Origin: an uncultured delta proteobacterium
GTDB lineage: Bacteria; Myxococcota_A; Polyangia; Polyangiales; Polyangiaceae
Length of the DNA: 64,000 nt
Direction: 5' to 3'
NCBI GenBank assembly: GCA_963782055.1
Contig: CAWAIF010000003.1
Coordinates: 3,712,001 to 3,776,000 of the forward strand
Shown: one piece after another, positions 20,190 through 31,779 of the stretch
How positions within the stretch are numbered: position 1 is the first letter of the stretch
Layout of the letters: each line of letters begins with the position of its first letter
Translations under genes and position numbers: made by a program
Notes under the pieces: model-generated
What the model saw: only the letters and a program-made list of their open reading frames with translations
The model's database searches: none
What the model was told of the DNA's origin: nothing

Positions 20190-21325
20190 GCCGGCTCCCG
20201 CCCGAGCACGCGCTCGTAGACCGCGCACGTGCGCCGGACCATGCGCGCGACGGTGAAGCGCGCGAGCGCCGTCTCGCGGCCGCGCAGGCCCATGCGCCGC
20301 CGCTCCTCCTCCGGGAGGGCGAAGAAGCGGGCGAGGCTCCCTGCGATCGCGTGCGGACCGGCCCCCTCCATCGCCAGGCCGGTCTCCGCGTCGCACACCA
20401 GATCGTCCACGTTGGCCCCGGGGCTCACGATCGCCGGCGTTCCGCACGCCAGGCTCTCCAGCACCACGTTGGGCAGCCCCTCGAAGATGGAGGGGAGCAC
20501 CATGGCGTCGGCCGCGCCCAGCAGCTCCTCCACCTCCCGCACCACGCCGGCGAAGCGCACGAGATCGCCGGTGCGCGTGAGGGCGATGGCCGCGCGCAGG
20601 TACGTGCCGTAACGGGTGTGGGCCTCCTGCCGCCCGGCGAAGATCACCCGCACGTCCGGCGGGAGCTGCCCGCGCGCACGCAGCAGCGCGAGCGCGGCCA
20701 CCAGCGCGATCTGGTTCTTCTGCGACGAGATGCGGCCGGGCACGACCAGCGTGGTGCCGGTCATCCCGAAGCGCTCGCGCGCGGTCCGGCGCTCCTCCGC
20801 CGACGGGGGCCGGAAGCGGCGCGTGTCCACGCCGTTCTCCACCACGTCGATCCGGTCCGCCCGGACGCGCGCCCGGCGCACCAGCTCCTCGCGGATCCCC
20901 ACCGAGTTGACGATGAGCGCGTCGGTGAGGCGGTGGGTGAGCCGCTCGTGGCGGATCGCCTGCGCGGGCAGGCGCGTGCAGCGCACCGACCCGACGGCCT
21001 TTCCGATGCCGGTCATGCGCACCGCGAGGCGGCCATAGAGGTTCTGGTGCCCGAGGTAGCTGTGGAGCACGTCCGGCCGCACCTGCCGCAGCACGCGGGC
21101 GAGGCGAAGGAGCGTCGCCGGCTCCGGCCCCTGCGGCGATCGCAGGTCGGTGCGGGTGACGAAGGGCAGATCGTAGCCGAGCTGGTCCGCCGGGTTGCAG
21201 ACGGCGAGGTGCGGCTCGTAGCGCGCGAGGTCCAGCCCGGCGACCAGCTCGGCGACCTGACGCTCCGCGCCCCCCTGTTCGAAGGACGAGACGAAGTAGA
21301 GGACCTTGACCCGGCGACCCGGCAC
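20186..21325 (-). CDS. Glycosyltransferase family 4 (paralog of 12515-13696)
   Basis: GGAERQ, DQLGY, SVRCTRLP, VENGVD, EGLPNVVLESLACGTP shared with the first copy. Confidence 0.9.
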   Translation of the reverse strand: MPGRRVKVLYFVSSFEQGGAERQVAELVAGLDLARYEPHLAVCNPADQLGYDLPFVTRTDLRSPQGPEPATLLRLARVLRQVRPDVLHSYLGHQNLYGRLAVRMTGIGKAVGSVRCTRLPAQAIRHERLTHRLTDALIVNSVGIREELVRRARVRADRIDVVENGVDTRRFRPPSAEERRTARERFGMTGTTLVVPGRISSQKNQIALVAALALLRARGQLPPDVRVIFAGRQEAHTRYGTYLRAAIALTRTGDLVRFAGVVREVEELLGAADAMVLPSIFEGLPNVVLESLACGTPAIVSPGANVDDLVCDAETGLAMEGAGPHAIAGSLARFFALPEEERRRMGLRGRETALARFTVARMVRRTCAVYERVLGREPA

Positions 21326-21789
21326 GCCCACCGCGTAGCACAACTTCCCCCCGCACGCGTGCCCGCGACCCGCCCCGGGCTGGGAGGGGACGCGCCCATG
21401 CCCCGCCCACTCGATCGCACGAGGCAGCCCTCCGCGACCTCACGCCCCCGCTCCGGGTGGCGCGTGAAGTGCCTGAAGGCTTCGGCCTCGCGCTCGCGGT
21501 CCCTCCTCACATCCTCCGTCGACTCGGGTGTGCGACGTGCCCGAGTCGGCCCCCGCGCGACGGCGAGGCGCGCGCTCCCCCGACTGCTGGACGCGTCGCG
21601 CTGGTGTGGGAGAGCCGTCCAGAACTGCTCCCGAGGAACCGCTGCGGTTCCCTCCGGGGTGGCGGTCGGGTTTACGGATTCGTCACCAGACGACGATTGA
21701 CGACTATCGCGATCCGATCTGTAGTGGTCTTGTCGGGGGACTGAGCCGCAAGTCGCCTCCGACGTCGACTTCGACGCGAGGAGGACTCG

Positions 21790-23282
21790 ATGGACCACAT
21801 GCCCCCCCCGGACGTACACGCACATACTCTAGCTCTGCTGCCGAGCTCGTTCCGCTCGCGCTCGCACTGACGCTTTCGATGGCGGCTTCGCTCGGGTGCA
21901 GCCCCGCGCCGCTTCCCAGCCCCGGACCGGAGCAGCTCGTCGACAACAACGGGGACGAGACCTCCGCGGGCTTCGCGCCGGCGAGCGTCGGCGAGGCGGC
22001 CGGGATCCCGGTCGCCTTTCCCGCGACGGCCGTGTCCTCGTTCAACGAGTTCAGCGTGCCTACCACCAACGGCGGCTCGCTCTTCGGCTATGCTTGGACG
22101 GTGGACGGCATCAACTGGACGAGCTGCAACGCGGACCAGTCGGGGCCTTGCTTCGTTCCCAAGCACCCGTCGCAGAAGAACTGGCGTGGAGACCCCGCCA
22201 TCGCCGCCGCGCCGCAGGGTGGCGGGATCGTCGTCGCGGCCAACCTGGCCAACACCACCGACGACTCCGGCAACCCGAACATGATCGTAGCGGCGCTCTC
22301 CTTCGACGGGGGGCGCTCCTACGGCAACACCCAGTGGGTGAATGGCGATGGCTGCACGGACGGCGATCAGGACCAGGAAGCCATCGCCTTCGACCCGACC
22401 ACGACCGAGCCGACCGTGTGGATCGCCTGGCGGCACAACGGGGCCGCTGGTCTCTCGGGGACGTACGGGATCTGCGTCCGCGGAGGCACGGTGAACGCTG
22501 CGGCGCACACCATCGACTGGTTCGGCCCGTCGGAGGAGATGCAGAACCTCGACCGCGCGCCCTTCCACGGCGCCGGCGGCCTGCTGATCCAGCCGGCACA
22601 CGACGCCGTGACGGTGATGTACTCGAACACCGACCGTGCGGACACGTCGATCTTTTGCAGCACGCACGACACGCAGGTCAAGTGGTTCACAGGCACGACG
22701 ACCGATGCCGGGGCGAGCTGGTCGTCGAGCCACTTGGTCTACGACACCCAGACCTTCCACTGGTGCACGTCCGGGTTGCACTACCAGAACGGACTGCGGG
22801 CCTTCGGCTTCGTGCGCGACTCCTATGGTGACCTCTGGGCTGCCGTTCACGACAGCCCCGGCACCATCCGCACCTTCACCAGCACGGACGAAGGCACCAC
22901 GTGGATCGCCAACAGGGTGATCTCGGTGATCGGATTCCCCGATCTCCTCTTTCCGACGCTCGCCGCGGGCGCGGGGGGACGAGTGGGCCTCACCTTCTAC
23001 GGCAGCGAATCTGCGGAGCGAACGATGCGGATGTTCTTCACGGCCAAGGGCTACGATCCCGCGCAGCCTCAGCGCTGGAGCTTCCCGCTGGCGTACGGCA
23101 ACGTGTTCCTGGCGTCGGGGCTGCTGAGCCGATCGCTCGGCGATTACCTCGGGATGACCGTCGTGCCGAGCGGCTCCTTTCACTTCGGCGACGACGAGAC
23201 CTTCCTGCCGCTCTACACCGACGGCGGCGGGGCGGGCTTTCAGGTCTCGTCGGCGCTCATCGACATGCCGGGGACGCTGTGA
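21790..23282 (+). CDS. Sialidase-like (BNR/Asp-box) beta-propeller lipoprotein; SD+ATG at 21790 is out of frame across a C8 tract
   Basis: Asp-box-like SFDGGRSY, TTDAGASW, STDEGTTW; GDPAIA and LGDYLGM; hydrophobic stretch ending SLGC; long open frame 21528-23282. Confidence 0.65.
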
Positions 23283-23677
23283 TCGCTCCGCGCCGTTGCA
23301 GCGCATTCCTTCTCGCCTGTGCAATCTTCGGGCTGGGCGCCGCCCCGGCCTGCGGGGGCCGAACCGGCGACGGTACGGACGCCGGTGTCGACGGGGCGGC
23401 AGACGCCGGTGCGGAGGCTGGACCCTGCGACCCCAATGTCCCGAGGCTGCCTCAACAACCCTGCACCGCCGACCTCGTCAAGATCTGCCAGGACTGGGCG
23501 GCCCAGGCGGCCGCACCCGCCGGCGCTTACGGCTCCGCGACCTGTGATGTGGACGGCGTCACAGGCCACACGGGCTGTGTGAGCACGTGCAGCGGCGACT
23601 GCCAGAGTCCTGCGGTCTGCGCGAGCGACACGCCCGGCGGCCCCCTGCACTGCGTGACCGCCTGCAAGGGGCTCTGA
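23279..23677 (+). CDS. Small Cys-rich lipoprotein
   Basis: GTGA overlap; signal ending PACGG, DAGVDGAADAG linker, Cys-rich C-terminus. Confidence 0.7.
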   Translation: MIAPRRCSAFLLACAIFGLGAAPACGGRTGDGTDAGVDGAADAGAEAGPCDPNVPRLPQQPCTADLVKICQDWAAQAAAPAGAYGSATCDVDGVTGHTGCVSTCSGDCQSPAVCASDTPGGPLHCVTACKGL

Positions 23678-23679
23678 GC

Positions 23680-24123
23680 GTGCGGCGCCTTCGTCTACTC
23701 GCCGTGCTCCTCGTGACGGCGTCCGCTGCCTGCGGCGGCGTCGTGGTGGACGACGACGGCGGCGCCAACTCGAACGGAGACGCCGCCCCCACGGGGGATG
23801 GCGCGCCGGACGACGCCGCCGGTGTGCCCCCCTTCCTCGACGCCTCGTGGGACAGCCCCTGCTACACCGTCAGCTACTCCTTCGGGGACGGCAAGTGCTC
23901 CCCGGAGCGCGACGCCATCTGCGAGGCCAAGGCAATGCGTGCCGCCGTCGACGCCTATGCGCACTCGCGATGCCTGAACGGCCTCTGCACCCGCGGGGAC
24001 TACTGCTACGGCAACCCCGTCGTGTGCGCCTGCTCGCCCAAGGTCATCTGCGCGGCGGGGTACGTCTGCTACAGCTTCACGCCCGACGGCGGCGCGCACT
24101 GCAAGGTGGAGTGCACCCCCTGA
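23680..24123 (+). CDS. Small Cys-rich lipoprotein (related to 23279-23677)
   Basis: RRLRLLAVLLVTASAACGG; C-terminus VCYSFTPDGGAHCKVEC resembles VCASDTPGGPLHCVTAC of its neighbour. Confidence 0.7.
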   Translation: MRRLRLLAVLLVTASAACGGVVVDDDGGANSNGDAAPTGDGAPDDAAGVPPFLDASWDSPCYTVSYSFGDGKCSPERDAICEAKAMRAAVDAYAHSRCLNGLCTRGDYCYGNPVVCACSPKVICAAGYVCYSFTPDGGAHCKVECTP

Positions 24124-24195
24124 CGCGCCCGCCAACGACGCCGTCACCTGTACAGACGCCTTGACAGGTCGCCGCGACGTTGGCGAGATGCGCTC

Positions 24196-24774
24196 GTGCA
24201 AGGGGACGTCCGGGACCTCGCCCGCCGCTGGGAGCGCTCGCTGCGGCGCGCCCTGCCCGCGGTCCGGCGCGAGGCCCTCCGCCTCGAGCGCGGCGCGCTC
24301 CGGAGGCCGGAGCGCTTCCACGATCTCGGCGTCGCGCTGGACGCGTGGCGGCGCTCCGGGCGCTTCCGCCTCCTCGGCTTCCGCTCCTTCACCGCGTACC
24401 TCCGCGCGCGCGGGGGGATGAGCCGCGCGACGGCGTACAAGCTCATGGCGGTGGCGTCGGGCATGGACAGGGCGACGGCGAACGCGCTCGGTCTGGAGCG
24501 CGCCTACGCGGCGACGCGCCTCGGCCCGCGGGGCACCGCCCTCGCCGCCGACAGCTCCGTCCGCGCCCTGCGTGCCCGCGCGACCGCCACGCCGGGCCGC
24601 GCCGCCGGCGCCGCCGCCCGCGCCCTCGCCGCGGCCCTCCGCGCGCCGCTCGGTGACCGCGGGCGCGTCCGCGCCTCGCGCCGCGGCAAGGGGTGGCGGA
24701 TCGCGCTCGAGCTGAACGTCGAGGACGCCCGCACGCTCGCCCGGCTCGTCCGGGCGCCGCGCCGATCGCCTTGA
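24196..24774 (+). CDS. Hypothetical basic protein with HTH-like segment
   Basis: 192 aa, Arg/Ala-rich; GFRSFTAYLRARGGMSRATAYKLM looks like a helix-turn-helix. Confidence 0.5.
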   Translation: MQGDVRDLARRWERSLRRALPAVRREALRLERGALRRPERFHDLGVALDAWRRSGRFRLLGFRSFTAYLRARGGMSRATAYKLMAVASGMDRATANALGLERAYAATRLGPRGTALAADSSVRALRARATATPGRAAGAAARALAAALRAPLGDRGRVRASRRGKGWRIALELNVEDARTLARLVRAPRRSP

Positions 24775-24823
24775 CGTCCCGTCCCCCGGCCAGGAGGGAA
24801 CGGACACCCGCGCACGTCGCACG

Positions 24824-24989
24824 TTCCCATTCCCTTCCCCTTCCCATTCCCTCCCCCTTCCCCTTCCCCTTCCCCCTTCGCGTTCGCACTGCAGGCGCGT
24901 GGGCGGGCGCGGGCGCGGGCGCGAACGCGGGCGCGGGCGCGAACGCGAGCGCGAGCGCGAGCGCGGGCGCGGGCGAGGGCGAGGGCGGG
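24824..24989. repeat. Polypyrimidine (TTCCC/TTCCCC)n tract followed by a (GCGGGC/GCGAGC/GCGAAC)n hexamer array
   Basis: Read directly: C/T tract ~24824-24879, hexamers ~24895-24989. Confidence 0.9.
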
Positions 24990-25023
24990 AGAGGAGGGGG
25001 CTCGCTCGGGGGGAGGTCATCGT

Positions 25024-25107
25024 CCCGCCGTGCTCGGAGTCGGCAAGGCCGGGCCGTGCTCGCCGTCCTCGCCGTGCTCGGCCTTGCCGACTCCTGCGCG
25101 CGGCGGG
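25024..25107 (+). ncRNA. Putative structured leader (long hairpin) upstream of four-helix-bundle gene 1
   Basis: GGAGTCGGCAAGGC 25036-25049 pairs perfectly with 25081-25094; outer stem 25024-25033/25098-25107; homologous to 26096-26220. Confidence 0.55.
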
Positions 25108-25162
25108 CTCGGGCGTTCGCCCCCCGCGCGAGGGTGCGCGGGCGCATGCAAGGAGTCGAACG

Positions 25163-25487
25163 ATGTTGCGTATCTATCCTGTGTTGCTGGAGCTCGTGCG
25201 GACGCTGGCACCTCTCGTGCGGGAGCTAGAGCGGCATGATCCAGAATCTCGCGCGGCAGTGCCGGCGGGCGCTGGCGAGCGCACCGCTCAACGTGGCGGA
25301 GGGAATGTACTCGCAGGGGCGCAACCGGAGGGCGCGCTACCACAACGCGCTCGGCTCCCTGCGGGAGGTGCTGGCGTGCTTCGAGGTGGCGGCGGCGCTC
25401 GGCTACTTGCCCGGGCTCGAGGACGGGCTGCGGGACCGCGTGGATCACGTGCTCGGCACGCTGGTCCGCCTCGTCGGCGCGCGATGA
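25163..25487 (+). pseudogene. Four-helix-bundle protein (IVP/Avd-like family) with a one-base frameshift near 25245
   Basis: AGGAG SD 25151-25155; MLRIYPVLLEL..RHDP, then LARQCRRALASAPLNVAEG..ALGSLRE in another frame; span is 3n+1. Confidence 0.8.
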
Positions 25488-25494
25488 GGCGCGC

Positions 25495-25696
25495 GATCGG
25501 CGACGTCGCCGGAAGATCGGCGACGTCGCCGATGCGCCTGGGCGCGAGCGCGTGGGCGGGGGCGGGCGCGAGCGCGGGCGCGGGCGCGGGCGCGTGGGCG
25601 GGCGCGGGCGCGTGGGCGGGCGCGTGGGCGCGTGGGCGAGCGCGAGCGCGTGGCCGGAACCGGGCGGGCGCGATGAGACAGGACATCGCGCCCGCC
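25495..25696. repeat. Palindromic direct repeat, GC hexamer array and hairpin between the convergent genes
   Basis: GATCGGCGACGTCGCCG x2 (25495-25511, 25515-25531); (GCGGGC/GCGTGG)n ~25541-25652; 13-bp inverted repeat 25663-25675/25684-25696. Confidence 0.85.
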
Positions 25697-25714
25697 GGGC
25701 CTGCGGCCGGGCCT

Positions 25715-26041
25715 CTAGTGCGCGCCCGCCAGCCGCACCAGCGTTCCCAGCACGTGCCGGAAGCGCGCCTCGAGCGCCGCCTCCAGCTCCGGCATGTAGC
25801 CGAGCGCCGCCGCCACCTCGAAGCACGCCTGCGTCTCGCGCAGCGAGCCCAGCGCGGTGTGGTAGCGCGCCTGCTTGTTGCGCCCCCGCGCGTACGCGCC
25901 CTCCGCGACGTTGAGCGGCACGCTCGCCAGCGCCCGCCGGCACTGCCGCGCGAGATCCGGATCGTGCCGCCCGAGCTCCCGCAACCGCGGCCCGACCTCG
26001 CGCACCAGCTCCAGCACCACGGAATAGATTCGAAGGTTCAT
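25715..26041 (-). CDS. Four-helix-bundle protein (IVP/Avd-like family)
   Basis: 108 aa; LRIY..DLARQCRRALASVPLNVAEG..ALGSLRETQACFEVA matches the family pattern QxxRAxxSxxxNxAEG..A.GS..E; AGGAG SD. Confidence 0.85.
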   Translation of the reverse strand: MNLRIYSVVLELVREVGPRLRELGRHDPDLARQCRRALASVPLNVAEGAYARGRNKQARYHTALGSLRETQACFEVAAALGYMPELEAALEARFRHVLGTLVRLAGAH

Positions 26042-26095
26042 CACGCGCTCCTCGGCAACGCCCCGCGCACCGCGCGCGGGGGGCCCAAGCCCACA

Positions 26096-26220
26096 CCCGC
26101 CGCGCGCAGGAGCTGTCGAGGCTGCGCGCGAAGCGCGCACCGCGCGCAGCCGCCCGGAGGGCGCGAAGCGCCCGAGGACGGCGAGCACGGCCCGGCCTCG
26201 ACAGCTCCGAGCACGGCGGG
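26096..26220 (-). ncRNA. Putative structured leader upstream of four-helix-bundle gene 2
   Basis: 14-bp perfect stem 26109-26122/26195-26208 plus outer stem; same flanking motifs as 25024-25107. Confidence 0.55.
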
Positions 26221-26245
26221 ACCATCCCCTCCCCCGAGCGAGAGC

Positions 26246-26460
26246 TCCCTTCCCGTTCCTTCCCCTTCACCTTCCGCGCCAACGGGGGGGATGACGCAAG
26301 CGCGAGGGCGAGCGCGGGCGCGAGGGCGAGCGCGAGCGCGAGGGCGAGCGCGAGCGCGGGCGCGTGTGGGGAGGGCGTCACCATCCCCTTCCCCTTCCCC
26401 TTCGCCCTTCCCTTCCCCCTTCCCCTTCGCCCTTCCCGTTCCCCTTCGCCCTTCCCCCTC
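26246..26460. repeat. C/T tract, (GCGAGG/GCGAGC/GCGGGC)n array and long (TTCCCC/TTCGCCC)n tract
   Basis: Read directly: ~26246-26275, ~26299-26365, ~26384-26460. Confidence 0.9.
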
Positions 26461-27438
26461 TCAATAGGCCGACAGACCCAGCTCCAGCGCCAATCCCAGC
26501 GTCTCCACCCCCGCCGTCCCCGCCGTCCCCGCCAGCGGGTGCTCCGGACCGACCTGCACCAGCCACACGCCCAGCACGCGCAGCTCGGCGTCGCTCATCG
26601 CCGCGAAGGGCGCGGGCAGCCGCGGACGCACCGCGCGGACCTCGCTCTCCGGCACCACGTGCGTCGTCGCCGCCCACGCCGTCCGCAGGCCGTGGCGCTC
26701 GCCCAGACCGAGGAGCGCGCCGGCGCGCACGCGGTTGGGCAGGTCCAGGTGCGACGCCATCCTCCGGTAGACGCGCGCGGGGAAGAGCAGGAAGTCCAGC
26801 TCGTTGTCGAAGCGCGTCCCGTGGCAGCGCAGGTCCACCTTGTGGATCGCCACCGCGCCGGGCGCGAGCACCGGGGCCAGGTCGTCGAACAGGGCGTCCA
26901 GATCGTGCACGTGCTCCAGCACGGCGCGGGACAGCACCAGATCGTAGCGCCTGTCCTCCCGCGCCGCGCCGCGCAGGTCCCGCAGCATGCGCGTGGACGA
27001 GAGCAGCTCGCCCACCGAGGCCGGATCGCGTCCCTCCCCCCGCGCCAGCGGCGCGTAGATGGCGCGCTTGTAGGCCTCGTCGCGCGACTCGATGTCGAAG
27101 GCGTCGACGCCGTCCCAGCGCGCCGCGCCGCGCAGGAGCGTCAGCAGGCCCACCGCGCGGGTATCACCGGGCCCCAGCTCCAGCACGCTCCGGCCGCGGT
27201 ACAGCGGCCCGTCGATCCCCGCCGCGCGGGCCACCGCCTCGTAGTCGTCGGCGACCGCGCGGAAGTAGCGCGCCCCCGCCTCCCCGTCGCGCCCCTCCCC
27301 TCGCCCGGTCGCGCCCGCGCGCCGCTTGGTCCAGTCGTGCAGCCGCGGCACCCTGCGTGCCAGCTCGTTCTCCCAGGCGAAGCCGAGGAAGGTGCGCGCC
27401 GCCCAGGCGAGCTTCCGCGAGGACCCGAGCGCGCTCAT
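26461..27438 (-). CDS. Class I SAM-dependent methyltransferase
   Basis: VLELGPGD, YDLVLSRAVLEHV, HKVDLRCHG; ATGA overlap with the kinase stop. Confidence 0.8.
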   Translation of the reverse strand: MSALGSSRKLAWAARTFLGFAWENELARRVPRLHDWTKRRAGATGRGEGRDGEAGARYFRAVADDYEAVARAAGIDGPLYRGRSVLELGPGDTRAVGLLTLLRGAARWDGVDAFDIESRDEAYKRAIYAPLARGEGRDPASVGELLSSTRMLRDLRGAAREDRRYDLVLSRAVLEHVHDLDALFDDLAPVLAPGAVAIHKVDLRCHGTRFDNELDFLLFPARVYRRMASHLDLPNRVRAGALLGLGERHGLRTAWAATTHVVPESEVRAVRPRLPAPFAAMSDAELRVLGVWLVQVGPEHPLAGTAGTAGVETLGLALELGLSAY

Positions 27439-28775
27439 CCGCTCCGCAGCGCCATCCACGCCAGCACGAACGCCAGCCCCGCCCCCGCGCCCATCGCCGC
27501 GTAGAGGGCGATGCCCTTCGCCTCGCTGGGCCTCCGCGGCAACGGCGTGGCCGAGGTCGTGCGCACCAGCGCCGCCGACGGCGTCGTCGGCCCCGCCGGC
27601 GCCTCGATCCGCACCAAGAAGTCGCGCGGTCCCTCCGGGAGCTCCGGCTCTGCGGGGGGCAAGAGCTCCCGCACCGGCGGCAGGTCCTCCTCCTCCAGGT
27701 CCTCCGGCGGCAGCAGCGGCACGCTCGGCTCCAGCGGCGGCACCTCCGCAAGCGGCACGCTGGGAAGGAACGTCGTGCGCTCCCTGCCCGTCGCGAGGCT
27801 GAGCCAGTCGGCCTGCTTCTCCGCCTCGCCGGGGAACAGCTCCGCCACCAGCATCGCCAGGTGCGCGCGCAGCTCGGCGTCGGAGGTCGAGCCGATGACC
27901 TCATCCAGATCGTCGGCCATCTCGCCGGCGGAGGCGTAGCGCGTGTCGCGATCGTGGCGCAGCGCGCGCTCGATGACGCGCCAGAGCGGCGCGTGGAAGT
28001 CCTGGATGAAGGTGCGCGGGTCGGGCACCTCGCCCCTCTGGATGGCGCGCACGGTGGCGACGTCGGTGTCGCGCTTGAAGAGGCGCCGCATCGTCGTCGT
28101 CTCCCAGAGCGTCGTGCCCAGGGCGTACAGGTCGGAGCGCCCATCCAGGTTGTCCTCCTTGATCTGCTCCGGCGAGAGGTACGGGATCTTGCCCTTGATG
28201 AGCCCGCGGGTGCTCTTGGTCTGCCGCTTGCGCGCCTTGGCCAGGCCGAAGTCGATCAGCTTCACGCTGCCGTCGTAGCCGATGAAGATGTTGCTGGGGT
28301 TCACGTCGCGGTGGACGATGTTCAGGCGGTGGTGGTCGTCCTCGTCGACGAGATCGTGGGCGTGCTGCAGCCCGCGCGCGACCTCCCGCGCGACCCACGC
28401 GGCGACGTCCAGCGGGACGCGCTTGCCCAGGCTCGCCGCCATCTCCCAGACGTCCAGCAGCGTGCGGCCCATCAGCAGCTCCATCGCGATGAACCACGCC
28501 CCGGCCTGCGAGCCGAAGCCCACCGTGCGGATCACGTTGGGGTGATTGAGCCGCGTGAGCAGGTGCGCCTCGTCGAGGAACATCTTCTCGTAGGCCGGGC
28601 TCTGGACGAACTCGCCCTTGACCACCTTGAGGGCCACCACCTCCTGCCCCGGCGGCGGCTCCTCGCCGGGCGCGGCCACGTAGCGGCCCAGGTAGACGGA
28701 GGCCATGCCGCCGCCCCCGATCTTCGGACCGAGCGCGAACGGTCCGAGGACCTCGTGCGACGGGGCGAGCGTCAT
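27435..28775 (-). CDS. Ser/Thr protein kinase (Hanks type) with C-terminal TM
   Basis: GGGGMASVY, VALK, HRDVNPSN, DFGLAK, YLSPEQ, DLYALG. Confidence 0.95.
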   Translation of the reverse strand: MTLAPSHEVLGPFALGPKIGGGGMASVYLGRYVAAPGEEPPPGQEVVALKVVKGEFVQSPAYEKMFLDEAHLLTRLNHPNVIRTVGFGSQAGAWFIAMELLMGRTLLDVWEMAASLGKRVPLDVAAWVAREVARGLQHAHDLVDEDDHHRLNIVHRDVNPSNIFIGYDGSVKLIDFGLAKARKRQTKSTRGLIKGKIPYLSPEQIKEDNLDGRSDLYALGTTLWETTTMRRLFKRDTDVATVRAIQRGEVPDPRTFIQDFHAPLWRVIERALRHDRDTRYASAGEMADDLDEVIGSTSDAELRAHLAMLVAELFPGEAEKQADWLSLATGRERTTFLPSVPLAEVPPLEPSVPLLPPEDLEEEDLPPVRELLPPAEPELPEGPRDFLVRIEAPAGPTTPSAALVRTTSATPLPRRPSEAKGIALYAAMGAGAGLAFVLAWMALRSG

Positions 28776-29927: not shown

Positions 29928-30820
29928 TCTCGCTGGTCATGCCCACCTTCAACCGCGCGCACGTCCTCGGCCGCGCGGTGCGCAGCATGCTGGCGCAGAC
30001 CCACGACGACTGGGAGCTGGTCATCGTGGACGGCGCCTCCACCGACGACACCGAGGCGGTGGTGCGCGCCTTCGGCGATCCGCGCATCCGGCTGGTGCGG
30101 CAGCCGGAGAACACAGGCCACATCTCCGGCCGCAACCTGGGCCTGGACGAGGCGCGCGGCGAGTGGCTGGGCATGCTGGACTCCGACGACGAGCTGGTCC
30201 CGCAGGCGCTCGGCATGCTGATGCGCGCCCTGGACGAGGTGGACCCCGAGCTGGACGCCATCTCGTGCAACTGCTTCGACGCCCGCACCAGGCGCTTCAC
30301 CGGCACCGGCCTGCGGCGCGACGGGTGGCTGACGGTGGGCCTCTCCCTCGACCGCTGCCGCGGGGAGCACTGGGGCATCTTCCGGCGGCGCATCCTGGGC
30401 TCGCGCCGCTTCGACGAGCGCATCCGCGGCTACGAGGGCCTGCTCTGGTACCGCATCCACGACGGCGCGCGCTGGTACTACCTGCACAGGGGCCTGCGCA
30501 TCTACCACCGCGAGGGCGCCGACCGGAACAGCATCCAGCCAGGCACCGACTACGGCCTCTACAAGTCCATCTTCGACTTCGACCCAGGGTACGTCACGCG
30601 CCTGCGCACCTGGAGCCCGCGCGCCTACCGCCGCTTCAACTTCAACGCCGCCGGTCAGTTCCTCTACGCCGGCGACCGCGAGCGCTTCGAGCGCGCCCTC
30701 GCCAACCTGCGCGCGAGCGGCGACGCGATGCGCCCGGCGGTGCTGCGCGTCGGCATGGGCGTCTACCCGGTGCTCAAGCCGGCGATCTTGCGCGCGAGTC
30801 AGTACCTCGACAGGAGGTGA
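29924..30820 (+). CDS. Glycosyltransferase family 2 (tandem paralog)
   Basis: ATGA overlap; ISLVMPTFNR, VDGASTD, LDSDD; shares LDEVDP..CNCFD..RGEHWG with neighbour. Confidence 0.9.
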   Translation: MISLVMPTFNRAHVLGRAVRSMLAQTHDDWELVIVDGASTDDTEAVVRAFGDPRIRLVRQPENTGHISGRNLGLDEARGEWLGMLDSDDELVPQALGMLMRALDEVDPELDAISCNCFDARTRRFTGTGLRRDGWLTVGLSLDRCRGEHWGIFRRRILGSRRFDERIRGYEGLLWYRIHDGARWYYLHRGLRIYHREGADRNSIQPGTDYGLYKSIFDFDPGYVTRLRTWSPRAYRRFNFNAAGQFLYAGDRERFERALANLRASGDAMRPAVLRVGMGVYPVLKPAILRASQYLDRR

Positions 30821-31779
30821 AGCGGCGCGCGCCCGACGTCCTCCGGGCGGAGGCGCGCCGCCGCGGACGCCATCGGGTGCGCCGGCCCCACCTGCACCAG
30901 CCACACCCCGAGCACGCGCAGCGCGGCGGGCGGCATCAGCCGGAAGGGGTGCGCCAGCCGGTCGCGCACCGCCAGCACCTCGCCCTGCTCTACCACATGC
31001 GTCGAGCTCGCGTAGACGAGCGCGAGACCCTGCCGCCGCCCCAGCTCCAGGTACTCAGGCAGGCGCACGCGGTTGGGGAGGTCGATGTGCGAGCTCATCG
31101 CGCGGTAGACGCGCTCGGGGAAGAGCAGGAAGTCCAGCTCGTGATCGAAGCGGTTGCCGTGGCAGCGCAGGTCCACCTTGTGGATGAGCACCGCGTCGTC
31201 GGTGGCGACCTCGCCCAGGTCGGCGAAGAGCGTGTCCAGATCGCCCACGTGCTCCAGCACCGCGCGGGAGATCACCCGGTCGAAGCGCTTGCCCCCGGCG
31301 CGGAGCGCCGCCGCGGACGTGTGCACGCTGCACCCATCGAGGAGCTCCTGGGCCCGCCCGTAGGACGCATCCTCCCCGGCGCGGCGCAGGAGCGGGCCGT
31401 AGATCGCCTCCAGGTAGCGGTCCTTGCGGGACTGGATGTCGTAGGGGTCGTAGCCCTCGCACGCCGCCGCCCCACGCAGGCGGGCGAGCAGCGCCACCGA
31501 GCGCGTGTCGCCAGGGCCGAGCTCGAGCACCCGCCGGCCGCGGAAGAGGTCCTCGCCGGGGCGCACCACCCCCACGTGCTCCGCCATCGCCTGGTAGTCG
31601 CCCGCCACCGCCTCGAAGTAGTCCGCCCCCGCCTCCCCGTTGCGATCGTCCCCGCGGCCCGTATCGCCCGTGAGGCGCTGCAGCGCGGCGGACACGGCGG
31701 GCGCGCGCCGCGTGAGCTGGTTGTAGGCGGCGTGGTACGCGAAGGAGCGACCCGCCCAGAGGGCCTTGCCGAGACGCAT
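30799..31779 (-). CDS. Class I SAM-dependent methyltransferase (paralog of 26461-27438)
   Basis: VLELGPGDTR, SRAVLEHV, HKVDLRCHG, ELDFLLFP, LRVLGVWLVQVGP shared. Confidence 0.8.
   Translation of the reverse strand: MRLGKALWAGRSFAYHAAYNQLTRRAPAVSAALQRLTGDTGRGDDRNGEAGADYFEAVAGDYQAMAEHVGVVRPGEDLFRGRRVLELGPGDTRSVALLARLRGAAACEGYDPYDIQSRKDRYLEAIYGPLLRRAGEDASYGRAQELLDGCSVHTSAAALRAGGKRFDRVISRAVLEHVGDLDTLFADLGEVATDDAVLIHKVDLRCHGNRFDHELDFLLFPERVYRAMSSHIDLPNRVRLPEYLELGRRQGLALVYASSTHVVEQGEVLAVRDRLAHPFRLMPPAALRVLGVWLVQVGPAHPMASAAARLRPEDVGRAPLHLLSRY

Follow-up and report, generated by a model that had tools for sequence, protein, structure and literature searches.

The window, a 64,000-nucleotide stretch of contig C3 from the 7.58-Mb genome of an uncultured delta proteobacterium (72% GC, 97% complete), contains a compact cassette at 24820-26460. 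A hexamer tract and a hairpin leader precede gene A, which runs head-on into gene B, and gene B is in turn preceded on its own strand by a hairpin leader and bordered by a further hexamer tract. The features, from left to right, are as follows.

24820..24888, + strand: outer pyrimidine hexamer tract, left, of CCCCTT units
24891..25001, + strand: left hexamer tract of GGGCGC/GAGCGC units, oriented like the middle and right tracts
25001..25012, + strand: conserved end motif, the GCTCG core of which lies upstream of 56 of 68 hairpins
25024..25107, + strand: leader hairpin A with covarying outer and inner stems, 75 bits with covariance model R1
25120..25155, + strand: small second hairpin and AGGAG ribosome-binding site
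25163..25487, + strand: gene A, four-helix-bundle protein (PF05635/TIGR02436), with an extra base at 25243-25245
25495..25533, no strand: doubled palindrome 3' of gene A, which also follows other copies and is not conserved across species
25536..25626, + strand: middle GGGCGC-type tract between genes A and B
25641..25714, no strand: palindromic spacer 3' of gene B, which the sister pair at C3:2.576 Mb has in identical form
25715..26041, - strand: gene B, intact, four-helix-bundle protein of 108 aa (PF05635/TIGR02436; model pLDDT 95)
26048..26242, - strand: leader B, with AGGAG, a small hairpin, a long hairpin with two TNC-loop branches, and the end motif
26293..26375, + strand: right tract of GAGCGC/GAGGGC units, direct relative to the left tract
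26381..26460, + strand: outer pyrimidine tract, right, abutting the stop codon of a methyltransferase gene at 26461

The 12-mer CTCGCTCGGGGG starts at 25001 on the forward strand and at 26242 on the reverse strand, and AGGAG is found at 25151 (+) and 26052 (-). This layout is not a product of chance: the genome contains 15 occurrences of the 12-mer, and a copy of the gene family is found within 800 bp of 29 of the 72 hexamer tracts on the main contig. The convergent genes with their shared leader layout, the palindromes and the GGGCGC and CCCCTT tracts, which had been described in an earlier sequence-only reading of this DNA, are all present.

The same reading had proposed twin genes of about 108 residues with 79 of 106 residues identical. 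Gene B is indeed intact, but gene A is frameshifted, and the identity amounts to 78 of 106 aligned residues, with an X at the break. Gene A carries one extra base at 25243-25245 (around 25244) in this assembly and for this reason is not an open 108-aa frame here. A 186-nt soil contig is without the extra base; it has five substitutions and a depth of 2.8 and could derive from a paralogue. In a sister copy, an extra base with different letters is found at the position of that in gene A. The extra base may represent either a long-read error or an inherited lesion.

Both proteins pass the cut-offs of the family to which they had been assigned, with 47.9 and 38.2 bits for PF05635 (cut-off 33.8) and 46.9 and 40.7 bits for TIGR02436 (cut-off 24), and PF05635 is the sole Pfam match. 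To our knowledge, proteins of this family are widespread, have solved structures and are of no known function. In the accessible parts of three further papers the family is named only in passing (PMC8700078, PMC5524665, PMC10910872). By sequence, 2GSC is the one clear relative with a solved structure. The predicted structure of the gene B protein (pLDDT 95) consists of four helices and aligns best with 2RLD (Z 14.8, rmsd 1.9, 105 residues), followed by 2GSC (Z 13.8, rmsd 2.5, 105 residues) and, in third place, Avd (Z 12.6, rmsd 2.5, 103 residues, 10% identity). No nuclease or recombinase family appeared near the top of this fold search, which does not exclude one. By analogy with its homologues, the protein would assemble into a pentameric ring (available part of PMC4990558). 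The residues L30, Q33, S40, L43, E47 and E69 are invariant across 36 proteins. A HEPN-like reading, based on an Rx6H motif, was dropped, as the histidine is not conserved.

The median dN/dS is 0.24 for 77 copy pairs of this genome; elsewhere it is 0.12 in one genome (G006) and 0.07-0.60 in seven others, the highest value being that of G046. Judged by these ratios, the family protein is under purifying selection. The dispersed copies thus seem to need their own protein, as would be expected if it acts on its own element.

The leader hairpins A and B fold better than shuffled sequences (z -4.4 and -2.8), and a hairpin is located 5' of 68 of the 81 full-length genes; it was missed at the other 13, at some of them through deletions. 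In 53 distinct copies 1252 of 1325 stem cells are paired, compared with 953 +/- 14 in shuffles, a figure that counts G-T as paired and is inflated, since the hairpins were chosen by a pairing threshold. An alignment of 37 sequences contains 173 cells that changed on both sides versus 3 that changed on one side; the hairpins are kin, so that such counts overstate independence, and palindrome repair without any function can also yield two-sided changes. The stems of hairpin A surround an almost invariant T:G pair, a T/C mismatch and an unpaired T. A covariance model scores the sense strand at 75 bits versus 26 for its complement. When 150 candidates of this genome were scored, it gave 14 matches, all of them preceding family genes, and it matched in 17 of 61 genomes, each of which also encodes the protein. 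The hexamer tract lies upstream of 66 of 80 genes, compared with 6 of 600 random windows. The co-occurrence of leader and repeats with the gene, which had been put forward from this one locus, is supported. Rfam gave just two weak matches in 24000-27200, both below the gathering score, and none to an rRNA family. Pattern scans of metagenome contigs (at least 118 matches) and viral contigs (119) gave no complete hairpin among the matches listed, which are chance matches.

About 24 family genes or fragments are present in the genome, namely 13 intact and 2 frameshifted main-family genes, 6 interrupted or partial ones and 3 of a second subfamily; they include five convergent pairs and one tandem duplicate of a single-gene copy. 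The sister pair, 1.16 Mb away, is identical to that of the window in 322 of 327 positions of gene B and 202 of 205 of leader B. A gene-less collapsed pair at C3:4157205-4157769 has retained two facing end motifs and tracts. Homologues occur in 34 of 61 relatives, often tail-to-tail, with 8-21 matches per congener in six congeners, and PF05635 was found in 38 of the 61, with up to 40 matches, and not in the remaining 23. In 60 regions taken from the best-scoring homologue matches together with this genome, 37 tail-to-tail pairs were counted. It had been thought that a leader with its gene arrived twice at this locus; however, it is the tail-to-tail pair itself that recurs. Single-gene copies may be half units or decayed pairs. 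In congeners, the partners of a pair are conserved subtypes that are about 45-50% alike. The 13 intact copies form their own branch in a FastTree phylogeny (no support values read), to which the copies of six congeners do not belong. This grouping suggests that the family was acquired and expanded separately in this genome. A search for related loci yielded four in genome contigs, one of them full-length, and one short match in viral contigs. Soil contigs match genes A and B, and none of them contains a joint across the cassette.

Two further places in this genome involve copies of the family. At G000:C3:5208580-5212703 a 4-kb insert with an IS and cysteine-rich genes divides a family gene, and we take the end of this insert to resemble the 3' end of a group II intron. 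At G000:C3:2267009-2267803 and 1820200 a short gene, presumably DUF559-like, is found near two or three cassette copies with alike flanks.

The unit of the hexamer tracts varies among genomes and sometimes among sites. Of the 23 pairs with tracts on both sides, a count that leaves out 14 pairs without a tract on one side, 21 have direct tracts, none has inverted ones and 2 are ties. As the two halves are inverted and the tracts are direct, polarity is a property of the whole pair. With regard to the replication strand, the skew is weak and tracts of opposite direction neighbour each other; tract direction goes with the cassette.

The surroundings at the window site had been described as a glycan locus, a setting that turned out to be incidental. 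No homologue of the four glycan genes of the window lies nearby at 15 of 17 sites; within 8 kb, such homologues occur only at the window site and at one other, where a UDP-glucose dehydrogenase homologue is 2.9 kb away. In five congeners no family gene lies within 1.5 kb of the orthologous methyltransferase gene. A glycan function was rejected, as most other sites are without a homologue of these genes nearby and the glycan loci of congeners are without a family gene near the orthologous methyltransferase gene.

The glycan locus of the window is split by a 3.5-kb block (21312-24821), at the end of which the cassette is located. This block contains four uncharacterised genes, likely for lipoprotein and cysteine-rich secreted proteins and for a 192-aa basic protein, and it is duplicated at 97.8% at G000:C3:6179445-6182983, where a copy of gene A then follows. 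The elements flanking the duplicate are presumably ISL3-like and IS91-like. Two methyltransferase paralogues, at 26461-27459 and 30799-31779, share about 72% DNA identity; congeners have one.

Mobility had been suggested on the basis of the window, and comparison with orthologous sites supports it. Collinear flanks are present in this genome for 17 of 33 congeneric loci, and none of these 17 is filled here; 10 of the gaps are under 300 bp, and some comprise only 4-6 bp between stop codons. When 40 congeneric loci were considered together with 15 own sites, no more than two sites proved to be common to different species, and one of these contains different subfamilies and tract units in four species. 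When own sites were tested in congeners, one was rearranged and one had no collinear flanks. A genome from another family of the order (G044) contains seven near-identical pairs of a sister subfamily. At one site of this subfamily, 40 congeners were compared: in 17 the site is empty (<100 bp), and in at least 7 of these the cassette is present elsewhere, whereas in 9 congeners the site contains mixed hairpins and tracts over 178-711 bp. That this strongest set of empty sites comes from another subfamily, the hairpins of which differ and bury the ribosome-binding site, counts against the main reading given below. Neither transposition nor a circle nor an empty site at strain level was observed; the empty sites come from other species, so that no target-site duplication is definable, and the cassette ends dissolve into variable tracts. 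Three outcomes had been named as speaking against a mobile unit, namely proteins outside the family, homologues without leader and repeats, and a locus fixed across relatives; instead, the proteins match the family, leader and repeats recur, and the sites differ. From these comparisons the cassette is very likely a mobile element. Its repeats and frameshift could suggest long-read errors, but an assembly artefact or a neutral local duplication is scarcely credible and is refuted except for the single extra base, as the same architecture occurs in many independent assemblies and soil contigs match both genes.

A host regulatory module would also account for part of the data. The leader RNA would be bound by the protein in autoregulation or attenuation, and copies would spread passively by recombination between tracts. 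Indeed, the hairpin is always 5' of the ribosome-binding site at a fixed distance and is preferred in the sense strand (75 versus 26 bits), the sister-subfamily hairpin buries that site, tandem arrays occur between tracts, and the protein is under selection. However, a family that is not found in 23 of 61 relatives and reaches 40 matches in others, with sites that differ among species and many decayed copies, speaks against it, and most empty sites have no tract with which to recombine. We consider this explanation very unlikely.

Several signatures bear on whether the hairpin acts as RNA or as DNA. The variable stem cells (n=1219) include 13 G-T and 9 A-C combinations; in the tRNA stems of this genome the G-U share is 6.7%. 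The sense-strand triloops of the inner branches are TNC in 79 of 130 cases and GNA in 4 of 130, with a background of about 5% each. Their contexts are GCTNCGC (71 of 117) and CCTNCGG (45), which are the complements of the DNA mini-hairpins GCGNAGC and CCGAAGG, respectively. According to the available part of PMC13037366, these mini-hairpins are far less stable as RNA and are found at single-strand initiation sites. GCTNCGC is also impossible as an RNA cUNCGg loop. The two-sided covariation, the GNA complements and the scarcity of G-T pairs all point to DNA rather than RNA. Against this stand the near-invariant T:G pair, the constant place 5' of the ribosome-binding site and an RNA energy that favours the sense strand by a mean of 2.9 kcal/mol (38 of 64 sequences); DNA energies show no strand preference (32 of 64). 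Moreover, with the halves inverted, the GNA loops of one half are not on the same strand as those of the other, so that a single-stranded intermediate comprising the entire pair does not fit. The ribonucleoprotein module that had been envisaged is weakened by the DNA-type signatures and keeps some standing.

An RNA route to mobility would be a retro-cassette, in which the Avd-like ring binds the transcript and a reverse transcriptase (RT) supplied in trans copies it; the antisense GNA strand would then correspond to the cDNA, and reverse transcription could have produced the tracts or used them as transfer sites. The fold matches Avd, which is a pentamer needed together with the DGR RT (available part of PMC6182149), the GNA loops are on the strand that a cDNA would be, and the genome has 13 RT matches. 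However, none of these 13 lies inside the window, as had been stated before, or beside its cassette, and RT was not found in 6 of 17 carriers, including G005 (98% complete), G019 (100%) and G027 (97%). The identity to Avd is 10%, and G-U pairs are scarce. Such a route appears rather unlikely.

Two of the RT matches were tested and are of group II intron type. Eight equal-scoring copies of this type, e.g. at G000:C3 1993752 and 2003506, represent a recent expansion, and a transposase-like ORF of 443 aa twice interrupts another RT type.

None of the surveyed helper enzymes is universal among carriers. The survey covered Y1, IntI, IS110, RT and IS21, and this test of co-occurrence is limited by incomplete genomes and lost helpers. 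IS110 was not found in 10 of 17 carriers and IS21 not in 5 of 17, both being present in this genome; in G005 (98% complete) RT, IS110 and IS21 were all not found. The Y1 search covered six genomes; PF01797 has 0 matches in this genome and occurs in five relatives, the congeners having 15-31 matches each, and six Y1 loci of relatives gave no convincing hairpin match (best 20 bits). The best match to the integron integrase (TIGR02249) in this 97% complete genome reaches 115.6 bits, compared with a cut-off of 265. The designation of the cassette as non-autonomous is therefore not supported, as no surveyed helper tracks it and its protein is under purifying selection.

These data also bear on the view that the cassette is a passenger of the MITE or REPIN type, the hairpin ends of which are mobilised in trans by an IS or HUH transposase and the genes of which are mere cargo; the helper would differ or be lost between lineages. 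The inverted ends with their conserved GCTCG, the gene-less collapsed pair, the matches of the hairpin model to an IS21 junction, to an IS110-linked place in G077 and to short gene-less elements, and the many Y1 matches of congeners are all compatible with this. Purifying selection on the cargo of dispersed copies would, however, be unexpected, and neither the distribution of Y1, IS110 and IS21 nor the six Y1 loci nor the integron integrase, which stays below its cut-off, points to a helper common to all carriers. We regard a passenger element as improbable to the same degree as the retro-cassette.

We think, tentatively, that the data are best explained by DNA hairpins that are handled by the element's own ring protein, with catalysis being borrowed. 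Among the mechanisms, this one ranks first, the retro route and a transposase in trans come next on equal terms, and the regulatory module is last. The cassette, which has no recognisable transposase, probably works through folded single-stranded DNA. It is likely copied as DNA with the pair as the unit. For each hairpin, folding of the template strand is predicted. The hairpin, in which one unpaired base is fixed, would be read as cruciform or single-stranded DNA in the manner of attC and HUH hairpins, and it is likely bound by the cassette's own Avd-like ring. The protein would act in cis as a binding or handling factor and not as a known nuclease, and strand cutting and joining would be borrowed from the host or from an unrelated enzyme. 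The direct tracts may permit tandem duplication and loss by recombination, and they may mark the insertion process. A tandem array of entire pairs in G058 and the existence of orphan tracts would fit such recombination between tracts.

Orphan tracts without a family gene, made of the same hexamer units, lie at G000:C3:1468350-1469200, 3186450-3187250, 925002 and 6480234. They partly form facing arms or flank a short repeated non-coding motif.

Among described systems, the nearest to the cassette is the ORF-bearing intervening sequence (IVS) of 23S rRNA, a small selfish element with an S23p/PF05635 protein (available part of PMC4990558). In rRNA genes of CPR bacteria, such sequences are scattered over several insertion sites, as described in the accessible part of a preprint (bioRxiv 10.1101/2024.02.27.582315). 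As far as these sources extend, both systems share the protein family and an inverted-repeat stem with short tandem repeats 5' of the ORF, but the IVS stem encloses its gene, whereas the cassette has a stem upstream of each gene. The cassette is also intergenic and multicopy, with a strong ribosome-binding site, two tail-to-tail genes and a protein under purifying selection. It is flanked by protein genes, and 24000-27200 contains no rRNA family. With Avd of DGRs, as far as it is described in the available source, the protein shares the four-helix fold (Z 12.6); unlike in DGRs, the identity is 10%, no RT lies beside the cassette and no template/variable repeat pair differing at adenines was seen among the repeats of 23500-27500. 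REPIN/RAYT and MITE-type elements presumably resemble the cassette in having two inverted hairpin ends, an intergenic location, many copies and gene-less derivatives. They differ from it in that the cassette has selected protein genes, direct hexamer tracts and no Y1 here (0 PF01797 matches, and no convincing hairpin at six Y1 loci of relatives). AAC/GTT, the R-box consensus of integron attC sites, is not found in the hairpin alignment A1. The cassette hairpin is nevertheless like attC, as far as the accessible text goes (PMC2727003), in being an imperfect DNA palindrome in which unpaired bases are conserved, the terminal branches vary and the strands are asymmetric; unlike attC, it lies upstream of the gene and not downstream, is not arrayed, and is accompanied by no integrase over the cut-off. 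A literature search, with most subscription journals outside it, found no description of this cassette.

The covarying hairpin with its fixed mismatch and unpaired base provides PF05635 with a precisely defined candidate ligand. As the unit is also defined, namely as the tail-to-tail pair flanked by direct tracts, and there is evidence of repeated insertion, the function of the family becomes directly testable. If no known transposase is needed, this would be a new way for DNA to spread. It is more doubtful that the cassette represents a hitherto undescribed class of autonomous bacterial mobile elements, in which an Avd-like ring with its invariant residues (Gln, Ser and two Glu) is the sole protein encoded, recognises the DNA hairpins of the element and brings about insertion, either alone or via host replication and repair, while laying down the direct tracts. 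If this were true, the very large PF05635 family would have a function and bacterial hexamer repeats would have a source, and rRNA intervening sequences and the Avd of DGRs would be offshoots.

The covariance model also matches outside cassettes, namely at an IS21 junction, in an IS110 3' region and in short gene-less elements, and the hairpin motif is thus part of the repertoire of mobile DNA. The IS21 match (59.9 bits) lies at an istA/istB junction, opposite to istB (L124, G035:C23, 1501-1600). In G077 (L399, L416) there are fourteen near-identical hairpin matches, and the one tested is situated just downstream of an IS110 transposase gene and is followed by a ribosome-binding site, short repeats and a further non-coding stretch. 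This IS110-linked hairpin was considered as a bridge RNA, and it reaches only about 45 bits. The short gene-less elements (L390, L391, L398, L402, L406) carry the hairpin with inverted ends; one of them apparently lies within a recombinase gene and another apparently within what we take to be a phosphoketolase-like gene.
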